A DNA stretch of 64,000 nucleotides from Tubiluchus corallicola (taxonomy: Eukaryota; Animalia; Priapulida). The position numbers were made by a program, and so were the translations under genes. Of the stretch, positions 5,944-61,722 are shown one piece after another. The number at the start of each line of letters is the position of its first letter. Within the stretch, counting starts at the first letter, position 1. The notes under the pieces were generated by a model. The model was not told the origin of the DNA. It did no database searches and saw only the letters and a program-made list of their open reading frames with translations. The stretch covers positions 572,447-636,446 of the forward strand of contig JAQGDQ010000013.1 in the NCBI GenBank assembly GCA_030141605.1, in the 5' to 3' direction.

Positions 5944-8900
5944 CTAGGAAACTGGTCTAGAAAGGAAAGGATTGCCCGTTGAGAACACGTTTTCCTTGCA
6001 GAATACTTCTAGTACTTCCCAACCTGAAAGATACGAAAAGTTTGTTAGTGCAAATAACCGTGCTACTTCTAAATAAGCACACATGTGTAACTACTCTAAA
6101 AAAATCAGAGCTACTGCTAATTAATGGAAGTTAATGTAGTTTGGTTGTCTTGTTGAAAATTTTAGCACATCATTTTGTTAATTAACAGCGGCTGTTGATT
6201 TTTTGTGGGGAGTTCGAGTTCTCCACACTGAATTGACATCAGTGCAGGCGACTATTTATTAGTTCTGCCTTTATTCTGCTAATTCCTCTTGCCTTGTAGA
6301 AAAGTAAGACCGGCTTATGGAGTATAGCCCACAAGGGAAATCATTGAATTCCAGACTGTTCTCAGATATATAAATTGATTTAGGAAATTACCTTTCTGTG
6401 GCTGATAATGGTACTTTTTCGTCCAGGCGTCTATAAGTAAGTTACTGTAGCGTTTATGTTCAAAATATTTTAAGTATTTATGAGATGTTGGACTTGGAAA
6501 GATGCGCTGGAAACCTCCACGCCTCTGATACTCGTCTTCTGTTTCTACTAGTTCACGTACGTCAGCTGGTGTGAGATCATCTAGAATATTTGAACTCACA
6601 TTCTGAAAGCAAAAAAATACTGTTACTTTTATCTATTCGGTAACAAAATTACTTGTAACATGCACTTTTTCTATAAAATAATATCGCGTAACTTGTGCCT
6701 TTTCAATTTGGAGACATTCAATTTTCAGTCGCGCAACAGAAAGTTGCAAAATCTGTAAGTGACTTAAGTCTATAAGACGGCACAGACATATGCAACATAT
6801 ATGCAACAAAGGCAAATGTGCAACTAAAAAGTAGCGCAACTAAAAGTTACAATCTGGGCTGAAGCTTTTAGTTAAGCAACTGTAATATACTGTTCTCAAT
6901 GAGAGCACGCAGATGTGCATTTTCAATTGCTCAACTTTTAGCCAAGTAAAATATTTAAGGGTAAGAAGAAGGCAGTGTCTTATGAAGTGGCATCTTCAAA
7001 TATACAAAAGACAGAACACAAATACGTATTAATTAAGATAAATCATTTTTATTGTTTTTGCTATCATCTTTTAAGAGATTTAGTAACAAATTCAGAAACT
7101 GGAGAGCAAAAATTTAATACAAAGTTTTCAAAGTGCATGATCACCTCATGAGTCCACATCTCAACACAATCAATAAATTTTTGCTGCCCACAGCTAAGTT
7201 TTTCCTACTGTGTCTTGTGAACGCCGTCCGCTTTGTAAAGAGCGATTTCCCGTGAAACCTCTCCTTGTGGCGACTGTGTATCGTACTTTAACATTGTGTC
7301 ACTGACCTTACCACCGGAAGTATTCTGGAAGCTGTTATACTAGCCAATAAGATGAACATTAGAATGTGTCTTAGTTTACCTTATTGTTAACCTTATTATT
7401 ATTATTAGTTAAACTTATTGTGTTCGTCAGTGTACTATGTTCAATATACTATATGATCACATATGCTAAACAAGACTTTGTGTTTTATACTTCAACACAC
7501 GGCGATAATTGTAGTGAACAGCTAGTACAGAAGTACAAAACCATATCATTATTAATGGTAACGAACAAAGACTTCATTCATTATTATTGATACCTAGCTA
7601 CCAAACACCATCGTCATTACTTAATTATACACCTGGTCGGTCACTCAAGCTCCATACTCCTGTACTCAGTGCGTCACTCCACTTTTATACAATTTTGTTC
7701 GTAATGTATGCTAGTACATCACAGTTGCTACACCAGTCACCTAGGCCCCATACTCCTGTGCTCTGTGAGCCGTCTCCACTTTTTATCTAAACTTTGTTCG
7801 TAATGTATGCTAGTACATTTCAGATGCTACACGAGTCACCTAGGCCCCCATACTCCTGTGCTCTGTGCTCTGTGCGTCGTCTTCACTTTTTATGCAATTT
7901 TTGATCGTAATGTATGCTAGCGCTGCACGGCTGAGCTTCTGACATATTGTGTTATAAAACATGCCTACATAACTTATATAGAGCAGTAAGAGAAGCCCAA
8001 AGATAAGAGTTGTTTCTCTGAGCCTGAAGTAACTTTTTCACCACTTAATGTCCAAATAGGTAATGTACAGCTCAATAAACAGCAGGTCATCAAAGCTGTT
8101 TGGACTCGTTCCAAATATGTAAAAAATTTACATAGAATCTATCAAATAGTCTTTTCAGTAATTGTTGTTGGGTAAGCCCATGTATTTCCGGTGTCTATTT
8201 GTCCTTTTATCAATTAATAATGCACAGATGCCATCTGATCACCGAAGTTCAGCAATGTAGAGCCTGGTTAGTACTTGGATGGGTGACCGCCTAGGAATAC
8301 CAGGTGCTGCAGGCTTGCGGGATGCCCACTCTGTATCTCGACACTAGGCGGAGGAGTTGCAAAAGCAGCCAACGGCTAGAGGGTGGAGGAGGTCAAGTGA
8401 CCCAATGGCCATGTGTAGAGGAGTAAACCTTCCAAATCAGGAGTGAAGCCCCGAAGGCAGACTAGTGCAGCATGCTCATTGACTCCGGCAGCTCCTGCAG
8501 CCAACCTGGTGCCAAACGTATCGCTCCGCTTTCCTTTGGACTACACCAGCGAGGAAGAGAGGGGGTTCCTGTTGTCTGGGCAACTCAGGATCTCCATACA
8601 ACTTGCCCAGACGTGCGCCCTGGAGACGTTCAAGGATCGCACTGCTCAGCCACAGTCGACGCTGCAGCTCCATCAATGTGATCAATAACTGACTCTCTTG
8701 GCGCACACTCCATTGTCTTCAGAGACAGAAGGATGCCAACCAATGCACAGATACATGCAACTGTTCAGGCTCCATATCACCAATTACGCAATTAAAAATT
8801 GTATGTCTGAGCGCCCGGTTTTGGTACACCAGTAAACTTGCAGCGATTTTCAGTGTAAAATTTTAGCTGAGCAAGTGAATATTGCATGTCTAATAGAATT

Positions 8901-61100: not shown

Positions 61101-61722
61101 GTTTTCTACATGAACACAAAGAGTTTTATGTTTAGCAGTCCGGGATAAAGCAACTCACAACATTGTAATGGAATAAAATGTTACAAATATCTTTTGTTCT
61201 CAGACATTTTACTCAGCACATAGGTTATGAAGTTAATTTTGCAATTATTCAACAATGTTTGTTGAATTCTCAAGTCATAAGTAAATGTGTTTTTCACATA
61301 CGAATGGACGGATTTTTTTCAAGCCATATTTGCAAGACTTTGATACTTATATTATGACTTGTGCTGCATTACAATTCGCAATCCCAAGTGCCTTTTACTG
61401 TGGATTCTAGAAACTAGACTCTGTAATTATCAGTAAATTGTAAAATGTGCAAGGCTAAATCATTATTGGCTGTTCATATTATCGTTAATGGCTGTCTTGT
61501 GTGTAAATATGCCTCCATTTTTATCACTGGGTACATATGCTTGCATTTTTAAGAAAAATAATGTATTTTATCTGACCACAGCTTGTCTTATAGATACTTT
61601 AAAAACATTTGCCTACTGTTTAGGAGCCTACGTATGTTACGTCACCATCTTATCACGAAAGGAATTGACATACGTCCAATTTGGAAAGAAATTCAGGACT
61701 TAATTGTTAAGCAAATTATCAG
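46170..61722 (+). CDS. TTLL-B: second TTLL4-like ATP-grasp ligase with N-terminal signal peptide (3' part beyond the window)
   Basis: Exons: 46170-46242, 49228-49395, 49917-50024, 51985-52064, 53881-54078, 55189-55268, 56552-56680, 60717-60839, 61624-61722. All introns are GT-AG with the same phases as TTLL-A, and five exons have identical lengths (108, 198, 129, 123, 99 nt). Motifs include [52 protein letters not shown] and HLTN. Confidence 0.9.
50790..51769. mobile_element. TIR element carrying an internal 23-bp minisatellite
   Basis: Imperfect TIRs of about 38 bp (ttaggatttctggtgacatca…gacgtcatt / aatgacgtc…gacgtcaccggcaatcctaa) enclose about 30 copies of taaaatacc(a/g)taaaatgat(g/a)acg at 50986-51692. 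Confidence 0.75.
52715..53790. repeat. Compound microsatellite (TATC)n-(TATG)n-(TATC)n-(TGTC)n-(TACC)n-(GA)n-(TA)n
   Basis: Directly visible; it accounts for the [10 protein letters not shown] ORFs. Confidence 0.98.
55840..56440. mobile_element. Copy of the Kolobok-like MITE family
   Basis: It shares aaagcgtttctgataattaa…gatgacatcacaa…aaattgaagtacagtgctac…ggttttgctttaa with 28555-29170. Confidence 0.6.
57389..57745. repeat. Interspersed repeat, intact copy of the element split at 22695-22810 / 24927-25130
   Basis: Its left part matches 22695 (caaaggccccgcaaaaa…) and its right part matches 24927 (agcagtttt..aagcgaaaattgccaaaaatagaacatc…). Confidence 0.8.
59020..59650 (+). mobile_element. LINE ORF2 3' remnant
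   Basis: It reads STKLRFL…[15 protein letters not shown]…[17 protein letters not shown] and ends in a short atcgca repeat tail. Confidence 0.7.

Follow-up and report, generated by a model that had tools for sequence, protein, structure and literature searches.

TTLL enzymes are held to be cytosolic writers of the tubulin code, and the TTLL glycylases (TTLL3, 8 and 10), which form another branch of the TTL family, are cytosolic too. According to the TTLL6 paper, residues K125, K174, R219, R241, N264, D346 and E359 are each essential in TTLL6, and two further lysines, K283 and K377, are invariant in glutamylases and bind the donor glutamate. In the same work lysine-to-Ala mutants are inactive as glutamylases, and glycylases and TTL have residues other than lysine at these two positions. 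Among the literature searched, published secretory TTL-like enzymes comprise CPED1/C7orf58 alone, a secreted ATP-grasp protein of a distant subfamily, for which the attachment of amino acids to surface polymers is predicted (PMC2824669); it is a published exception to the premise, made in a preliminary description of the present locus, that TTL-type enzymes are never secretory. A signal-peptide TTLL4 or TauD protein in animals was not found in a title-level search, mostly without subscription literature, and TTLL or TauD terms were not found in the text or one supplementary file of a biomineral proteomics paper (PMC13425148).

The locus considered here lies in a window of 64,000 nt of Tubiluchus corallicola DNA and consists of two TTLL genes, TTLL-A and TTLL-B, with a TauD-family dioxygenase gene between them. 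The span 5944..61722, previously given for the three genes, is correct at its left end, where TTLL-A terminates, while 61722 is the end of the last in-window exon of TTLL-B and not the gene end.

TTLL4 descent, gene structure and active sites

TTLL-A and TTLL-B are 44% identical over 314 aa and have identical intron positions, and their identity to fish and octocoral TTLL4 is 37-40%. Together with their closest relative, P0134, they form a clade (SH-aLRT 99) nested in animal TTLL4, in trees built by a quick method with long branches and containing TTLL4/5-type rows only, glycylases being left out (P0156, lacking the anchor motif, is absent from the second tree). Pfam TTL (PF03133) is matched above the curated cut-off by five of six scanned TTLL exons, exon 13 of TTLL-A giving no match; these matches and the tree placement bear out the earlier view of both flanking ligases as TTLL4-like, and TTLL4-type motifs are present at both the N- and the C-terminal side. 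On this sequence comparison, TTLL-A and TTLL-B are local duplicates derived from TTLL4, which is the simplest account of their adjacency. A word search with TTLL-A exon 5 against longer proteins recovered none of eight candidates, and a PDB search with its exon 8 gave no match.

TTLL-A is encoded on the minus strand by 14 exons (573 aa), with GT-AG introns, consistent phases and a stop-free frame. Following the predicted first exon, discussed below, exon 2 (36987..37142) contains, in this order, a W-N-x-S sequon, a C-P-R motif and PAL..SLF, a motif of TTLL4 type; exon 3 (33051..33158) is followed by exon 4 (30659..30735), whose similarity is the lowest among internal exons and whose phases fit. 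Equivalents of K125 and K174 are in exon 5 (29944..30141), the beta5-beta6 loop is in exon 6 (28435..28520), those of R219 and R241 are in exon 7 (27192..27320), and T263, N264 and the position of K283 are in exon 8 (25317..25439). A 13-kb intron with retroelements precedes exon 9 (12238..12336). Exon 10 (11674..11808) contains D346, E359, N361 and a His at the H362 position, and exon 11 (9685..9816) the position of K377; exon 12 (9048..9174) and exon 13 (6392..6602) follow, the latter encoding a TTLL4-type C-terminal segment (82% identity with P0134 over 60 aa). Exon 14 (5944..6023) contains the stop codon, with polyA-like hexamers 82-111 nt downstream. Neither a KDEL-type signal nor a membrane anchor was found at the TTLL-A C-terminus.

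TTLL-B, on the plus strand, has nine exons up to 61722 and runs beyond the window edge. Its exon 2 (49228..49395) has the W-N-x-S sequon, C-P-R and PAL motifs; exons 3 (49917..50024) and 4 (51985..52064) are followed by exon 5 (53881..54078, K125 and K174 equivalents), exon 6 (55189..55268), exon 7 (56552..56680, KFDLR motif and R241), exon 8 (60717..60839, T263, N264 and the K283 position) and exon 9 (61624..61722), and no E-x-N exon was found between 61722 and the window end.

All seven residues essential in TTLL6 are kept in TTLL-A, whose divergence from TTLL4 is about 60%, and TTLL-B keeps all five in view, its D346/E359 exon falling outside the window. The donor pocket is changed. K283, kept in 114 of 129 homologs, is replaced by Ala in TTLL-A and by Thr in TTLL-B, and K377 (126/129), located by a gap-free count of 16 residues from N361, is replaced by Ser in TTLL-A. 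The lysine pair by which TTLL glutamylases hold the donor glutamate is thus missing, both members in TTLL-A and K283, the sole one in view, in TTLL-B. Because these lysines are lost, TTLL-A and TTLL-B are probably not glutamylases, and the earlier wording 'amino acids or amines' for the donors agrees with a lost glutamate pocket. K283 is also absent in 15 homologs, mostly bee and sawfly proteins, TTLL4-like by name, that are leaderless; the K283 change alone is therefore not special. What appears to be new here is that TTLL-A keeps the ligation residues yet loses the donor-glutamate lysines, and that TTLL-B loses the one in view. The glycylases and TTL are like them in having non-lysine residues at both positions, but TTLL-A and TTLL-B sit in TTLL4, in trees without glycylases.

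Other positions separate the two duplicates. At the Q180 position, Arg, the initiase residue of the TTLL4 type, is retained in TTLL-B (exon 6) and replaced by Gly in TTLL-A (exon 6). The D217 position, Asp in 129/129 homologs and in TTLL-B, is His in TTLL-A (exon 7), which may impair this protein; moreover, Ser is replaced by Gly at S365 of TTLL-A. Compared with TTLL4, then, descent, the PAL..SLF motif, the ATP-grasp catalytic residues and the C-terminal segment (seen in TTLL-A) are common, whereas the donor-glutamate lysines are lost, TTLL-A is without the initiase Arg, the H362 and D217 positions of TTLL-A are both His, and a predicted short hydrophobic leader takes the place of the long low-complexity N-terminus of TTLL4. 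CPED1/C7orf58 resembles the duplicates in combining a TTL-type ATP-grasp domain with the secretory pathway, as predicted for TTLL-A and TTLL-B, activity being a prediction in both cases. It differs in that its subfamily is another one, in which cadherin-like and PC-esterase domains are fused to the ligase domain, while TTLL-A and TTLL-B are stand-alone recent TTLL4 duplicates; TTLL-A ends at 573 aa after a TTLL4-type tail, with no such fusion (the TTLL-B end is beyond the window).

Predicted first exons and secretory targeting

Signal peptides were assessed by hydropathy and the -3/-1 rule. The three N-terminal peptides are present as originally reported, starting at 38412 (-), 38774 (+) and 46170 (+), and so are the N-x-S/T sequons after each start (TTLL-A N38, dioxygenase N36, TTLL-B N46). 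The accompanying claim of secretory-pathway targeting is supported for TTLL-B; for TTLL-A and the dioxygenase it is plausible.

The predicted exon 1 of TTLL-B (46170..46242, +) encodes a signal-peptide-like leader and has a strong phase-1 donor. It ranks first both by donor score and by hydrophobicity among 24 candidate first exons (21 donors), and it alone passes the donor and hydrophobicity bars, chosen after this exon had been seen, among 135 candidates in 115,788 nt. Among the variants listed, further differences being possible, 3/3 DNA differences in this exon are at third codon positions, two of them silent and one changing Phe to Leu. Sequencing run X1 has the character of DNA, none of its listed joints being a splice joint, and contigs of run X2, presumed to be RNA, leave the queried exons uncovered, the two first exons included, a blank that does not bear on expression. 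The patch around the exon is richer in CpG than most (top 7-10% of windows). A signal-peptide leader is therefore a well-supported prediction for the TTLL-B first exon.

The predicted exon 1 of TTLL-A (38352..38412, -), also with a phase-1 donor, is moderately supported as encoding a signal-peptide-like leader. Its donor is weak, with a score of 4.8 where true donors reach 4.3-12.6, and it is third in hydrophobicity among 20 candidate first exons (14 donors), several rivals having stronger donors (up to 9.8). Read as a splice acceptor, its T-rich end reaches a score of 10.7. The n-region would be longer if translation began at an in-frame ATG that lies 19 codons further upstream, and chance donors with TTLL-A-like leaders occur at 6 per 116 kb. 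In favor of the predicted exon, it is near exon 2, and the GC step at its donor (0.38) is the sharpest of all donors, with 12 rivals at or below 0.10.

The sequon W-N-x-S and a Cys shortly behind the leader are common to TTLL-A and TTLL-B, both in exons 2, and are found in 0/11 homologs printed for this region. Between the two exons 2 there is no long ORF, the dioxygenase excepted, to account for a long N-terminus of the usual TTLL4 kind. A convincing leader is seen in none of 120 other TTLL homologs, some of the leaderless ones having short N-termini, and one in 121, from Lingula, has a signal-peptide-like start. P0134 gives no N-terminus, its reading frame beginning inside the domain. Two homologs flagged by hydropathy, P0163 and P0167, were rejected, the reasons being a segment placed at residue 31 and an apparently truncated model, and P0123, a match with a leader, was excluded as an unrelated repeat protein.

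The Lingula anatina protein (XP_013397583.1), annotated as tubulin polyglutamylase TTLL4, has its signal-peptide-like start on a TTLL4-type body. Like TTLL-A, it has Gly at the initiase Arg position; unlike the duplicates, it retains K377, has a basic residue at K283 and is without the W-N-x-S/C-P-R motif. It joins the TTLL-A/TTLL-B clade in one tree only (support 72) and falls outside it in the other, and an ESM Atlas search with it returned general TTL clusters only, so that a common origin is neither shown nor rejected by these data. Export signals were likely gained by the TTLL-A and TTLL-B duplicates.

The TauD-family dioxygenase and the head-to-head spacer

The substrates of the TauD-clan enzymes characterised so far are small molecules and not proteins. 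The invertebrate TauD-like family (PF02668), about 50% identical to the dioxygenase studied here, is known from insects, crustaceans, molluscs, echinoderms, hemichordates, amphioxus and lamprey, and shares with it the fold, the H-x-D...H triad and two Arg. Most members begin about 10-30 residues before the core, whereas the dioxygenase has a leader and a Cys-rich linker with a sequon; KDEL-like ends occur in 9/105 members and a clear leader in one.

The dioxygenase gene (38774..39769, +) is intronless, a single ORF of 331 aa that matches Pfam TauD at 2e-29 and retains the fold features of TauD/TfdA Fe(II)/2-oxoglutarate enzymes, with an intact H152-D154-H294 triad and R310/R314. No Met other than M1 occurs before residue 93, and codons 7-28 contain no splice acceptor scoring above 2.2. 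The leader, followed by Cys 25, 33, 40 and 52, has a Glu inside its hydrophobic core, and several cytosolic-looking homologs match its hydropathy; a signal peptide is here a moderately supported prediction. The predicted model has low confidence at residues 21-50, so that any disulfides would be uncertain. Cys78 is carried by 0/103 homologs, and changes affect 24 of the 106 positions conserved in the family, the metal and 2-oxoglutarate ligands being unchanged. In the tree the dioxygenase and a divergent Lingula protein are paired within a mollusc-rich group (support 97); as both are the longest branches, the pairing does not point to a taxon. Its structure matches are only 20-27% identical and are enzymes of many substrates, which leaves the substrate unfixed; they include ScoE, Rv0097-type and phenoxyalkanoate dioxygenases, which oxidise X-CH2-COOH groups. 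Since characterised substrates of the clan are small molecules, hydroxylation of a protein fits poorly. One contig has a depth of 41, compared with about 7-20 for other long contigs, which suggests more dioxygenase copies elsewhere.

The start codons of TTLL-A and the dioxygenase are indeed head-to-head, 361 bp apart, as initially described. The spacer (38413..38773) is a candidate shared promoter; it contains a 26-nt direct repeat (38575-38600 and 38622-38647) and is not marked by CpG content. What stands behind a reading as a co-regulated cluster is, at the level of sequence, this spacing and the coincidence of three leaders only.

Proposed ligation chemistry and rival readings

We propose, with confidence about evenly balanced, that TTLL-A and TTLL-B are local TTLL4 duplicates that likely enter the ER and act as luminal ATP-dependent ligases of a non-glutamate amino acid onto secreted carboxylates. 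Short signal peptides would route both proteins into the ER, for action in the ER/Golgi lumen. As in the TTLL mechanism, ATP would turn the acceptor carboxylate of a secreted protein or peptide into an acyl-phosphate, which the amine of an amino acid other than glutamate would then attack. The first guess for the donor is something small and neutral, for example glycine, because Ala and Ser in TTLL-A and Thr in TTLL-B at the donor lysines are the glycylase pattern. TTLL-B, retaining the initiase Arg, may initiate branching at a Glu side chain; TTLL-A, having lost this Arg and having a His at H362 like the elongase TTLL6, may lengthen that branch or use an alpha-carboxylate as acceptor. The dioxygenase would likely be a separately relocated enzyme with an altered small-molecule substrate, probably sharing a promoter with TTLL-A.

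An unlikely alternative is that the paralogs are cytosolic or ciliary with ordinary short or unrecognised 5' exons, the leaders, at least that of TTLL-A, being by-products of T-rich DNA. The better donors among the rival first exons of TTLL-A, the acceptor-like end of its exon 1, and the 120/121 homologs without a convincing leader, some with short N-termini, are in line with it, as is the basic charge of both proteins (74 K+R vs 56 D+E in TTLL-A), which would suit a tubulin-tail binder. This reading has to contend, however, with the uniqueness of TTLL-B exon 1 among 135 candidates and its third-position variation (among variants listed), the largest GC step at the TTLL-A donor, the sequon and Cys common to both exons 2, and the signal-peptide-like start of the Lingula TTLL4-type protein. 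It is quite improbable that the proteins are secretory and that TTLL-A, if not TTLL-B as well, is a binding protein with little or no catalytic activity, as proposed for teleost and mollusc CPED1. Such inactive secreted TTL-like domains are a precedent, the inactivity of the TTLL6 lysine mutants as glutamylases is consistent with it, and TTLL-A lacks both donor lysines and has Gly at S365 and His at the invariant Asp; still, its ATP/Mg/phosphate residues are kept 7/7 despite the divergence from TTLL4, and TTLL-B retains the Asp.

A single co-regulated luminal pathway, with TTLL-B and TTLL-A ligating an amino acid onto a secreted substrate and the dioxygenase oxidising the adduct, is rather unlikely. 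It is favored by the head-to-head spacing with its small direct repeat, by the parallel departure of all three genes from their families, each having a leader and an altered substrate pocket but intact catalytic residues, and by the X-CH2-COOH oxidisers among the TauD-clan matches, but local duplication already accounts for the TTLL pair, the contig depth points to further dioxygenase copies, and the low structure identity leaves the dioxygenase substrate unfixed. Its most elaborate form, which we consider very improbable, would be an animal cluster in which a TTLL4-derived initiase and elongase ligate glycine or another small amine to secreted-peptide carboxylates and the dioxygenase, in the manner of its relatives ScoE and phenoxyacetate dioxygenase, oxidises the resulting N-CH2-COOH adduct to amides or other capped groups independently of PAM; the secretory branch of TTLL4 may be older and shared with brachiopods.

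If the dioxygenase does act on the ligation product, the locus would be among the few enzyme clusters in animals. The luminal ligase reading of TTLL-A and TTLL-B, if true, would mean that animals have a further, new class of protein modification outside the cell, made by a secretory TTLL4 branch with another donor; this branch would also be a natural case of donor-specificity switching that is testable with few purified enzymes.

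Gene models and their setting

The window is animal DNA of high AT content and contains introns, microsatellites and retroelements. The two ligase genes were modelled by aligning their regions against one another and against homologs. TTLL-A (38412 to 5944, minus strand) has 14 exons encoding 573 aa, with consistent phases, GT-AG boundaries at 13 of 13 introns and no internal stops, while the part of TTLL-B within the window (46170 to 61722, plus strand) comprises nine exons and 352 aa so far; its catalytic E-x-N exon was not found in the remaining 2.3 kb. The two proteins are 44% identical over 314 aa, exons 3, 5, 7, 8 and 9 are of equal length, and intron phase is the same at all common introns. 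The dioxygenase (38774-39769, plus strand) is a single open frame (Pfam TauD, 2e-29) whose predicted structure has a mean pLDDT of 91 and matches TauD-clan structures at 20-27% identity. Hence the exon models and the Pfam match bear out the three genes of the preliminary description, on the strands given there, and add gene structures to what it saw in the sequence; the first exons of both ligase genes are predictions, and TTLL-B is incomplete in the window.

A Maf-type bZIP transcription factor exon (1753-2178, plus strand; bZIP_Maf, 5e-25) is convergent with TTLL-A. Intron 8 of TTLL-A contains a Gypsy-type LTR retroelement split into several frames (about 16340-20456, minus strand; gag-like, protease, integrase and RT/RNase H pieces), with near-identical flanks, possibly its LTRs, at about 15270-16230 and 21260-22110, and a LINE-type reverse transcriptase fragment (23063-24968, minus strand; RVT_1, 2e-39). 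Tandem repeats produce long spurious open frames at 10634-11441, 25742-26596, 33388-35071, 44954-45688, 50986-51693 and 52723-53738.

TTLL4 descent and donor pocket

Searches with TTLL-B exon 5 (HMMER) and with P0134, an unnamed Logan sequence that is the closest relative and starts inside the domain, gave 37 and 264 matches, respectively, with 120 of the 264 listed; P0134 itself came from the first search. TTLL-A, TTLL-B and P0134 form a clade (support 99) within animal TTLL4, confirming the TTLL4-like identity proposed earlier; the two proteins are not CPED1. Among 121 N-termini examined, only the TTLL4-type protein of Lingula anatina (P0119, XP_013397583.1), another match of the exon 5 search, has a signal-peptide-like start; two further flagged ones were rejected. 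This protein is annotated as an ordinary tubulin polyglutamylase, and its placement differs between trees, either with flatworm-type rows (84) or with TTLL-A, TTLL-B and P0134 (72). The listings of a literature search contained nothing on signal-peptide TTLL4 proteins.

The TTLL6 structure paper (bioRxiv 10.1101/2020.06.07.139295) gives K125, K174, R219, R241, N264, D346 and E359 as essential. In it the donor glutamate is held by K283 and K377, which do not vary among glutamylases but do in glycylases and TTL; initiases are recognised by Arg at position 180, and elongation is favoured by H362. These positions were transferred through the P0134-TTLL6 alignment and a 133-row alignment. All seven essential residues are kept in TTLL-A, and TTLL-B keeps all five in view. 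At position 283, where 114 of 129 other homologs have Lys, TTLL-A carries Ala and TTLL-B Thr; at position 377, where 126 of 129 have Lys, TTLL-A carries Ser. Both proteins are TTLL4-derived and yet, judged by these residues, fail the glutamylase pocket test. Position 180 is Arg in TTLL-B and Gly in TTLL-A, which has His at 362 and another His where 129 of 129 homologs have Asp.

A single change of this kind is not unique, since position 283 is Met, Ile or Leu in 15 homologs, mostly from bees and sawflies (P0139, P0162, P0166, P0169-P0174, P0176, P0179, P0181, P0182, P0185, P0187), perhaps another specificity switch.

Predicted leaders

The signal-peptide-like leaders of TTLL-A and TTLL-B depend on a predicted first exon in each gene. 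Candidates were all ATG-to-GT phase-1 exons in the 12 kb separating the two exons 2, with donors scored by a matrix derived from 20 internal donors. TTLL-B exon 1 ranks first of 24 by both donor score (10.2) and hydropathy (3.75), and, under bars set post hoc, it is the sole one of 135 candidates (both strands, 115,788 nt) to pass even when these are relaxed. It sits within a CpG-richer patch, and a contig of X1, a sequencing run behaving as DNA, differs from it at three or more sites, the listed ones all being third codon positions (two silent, one Phe to Leu). The TTLL-B leader is thus probably real, and of the three signal peptides proposed in the preliminary description it is the best backed.

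The TTLL-A leader is a fairly good prediction. Its exon 1 has a weak donor (4.8) and ranks third of 20 by hydropathy, its T-rich end reaches an acceptor score of 10.7, an in-frame ATG lies 19 codons upstream of the proposed start, and six chance donors in the window have comparable leaders. It is favoured by its proximity to exon 2 (1.2 kb), by a W-N-x-S sequon and a Cys at matching places in both exons 2, and by the fall in GC across its donor (0.48 to 0.10), a step larger than at any true donor or any of the 12 rivals checked, though a weak test, since the steps at true internal donors are themselves small.

A TATAAA hexamer (38473-38478, minus strand), common by chance in this DNA, precedes the proposed ATG by about 60 nt and lies immediately before the upstream in-frame ATG at 38469; were it a TATA box, transcription would begin past the latter. 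At exon 2 (36989-37055) an X1 contig (depth 21) leaves the window sequence, runs through 23 other letters and rejoins it 90 nt back. Read by hand, it holds an in-frame 30-codon tandem unit with the same E-C-P-R-V-I motif, silently changed in five of six codons, which would be a further copy of exon 2, possibly repeated in tandem, that conserves the Cys motif.

The dioxygenase leader is about as probable as that of TTLL-A. No Met other than M1 occurs ahead of residue 93, the frame stays open over the 54 codons preceding the core, with a chance of about 0.02, and no good splice acceptor was found inside codons 7-28; the leader has a predicted helix (9-24), yet contains Glu. The family is broad in invertebrates (109 matches among 1456 candidates, best 54%). 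A clear leader, judged by eye, occurs in one of 109 relatives and a KDEL-like C-terminus in nine of the 105 that were aligned once four short partial matches had been removed, so other members may be luminal too.

These nine are P0014, P0015, P0017, P0032, P0034, P0037, P0055, P0082 and P0091; KDEL, KKEL, HQEL, HEEL, RQEL and RDEL end hemichordate, amphioxus and Capitella proteins, several lacking an obvious leader in their models. Other relatives have basic, mitochondrial-looking leaders, and location within the family may vary widely. A cnidarian larva preprint (10.1101/2024.10.30.621027) describes TauD-domain genes of unknown substrate, its available portion not mentioning signal peptides on them.

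The dioxygenase retains H152, D154, H294, R310 and R314. Of the 106 positions that at least 85% of the family share, 24 are altered in it, many of these lying in loops 117-149 and 203-206, which, by analogy with the TauD fold, would bind substrate. An X1 contig over its 3' part (39156-39884) has depth 41, versus about 7-20 in other long contigs (a few 24-38), and shows eight differences, four of the six read being residue-changing, as well as a gap of a single base close to its end, which suggests extra copies, one perhaps broken.

Possible joint pathway and proposed mechanism

The preliminary description went further, suggesting that the three genes may form one co-regulated ER/Golgi or extracellular pathway. 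The parallel gain of a leader three times is suggestive, and the head-to-head spacing of TTLL-A and the dioxygenase, with a 26-nt repeat in the spacer, makes a common promoter plausible. On the other side, TTLL-A and TTLL-B are local duplicates, and X1 hints at further copies of both gene types elsewhere. A joint pathway appears unlikely, and that interpretation is supported in part, its secretory leaders being backed in differing degrees.

ATP, Fe(II) and 2-oxoglutarate are available to enzymes of the ER/Golgi lumen, among them the collagen hydroxylases and Fam20 kinases. No C-terminal retention signal was found on TTLL-A or the dioxygenase, so they would transit the lumen or be secreted. The best reading of the sequences is that TTLL-A and TTLL-B would be a luminal ATP-grasp ligase pair whose donor would not be glutamate but, as a first guess, glycine or a similar small amine; TTLL-B would start the modification and TTLL-A would extend or cap it.
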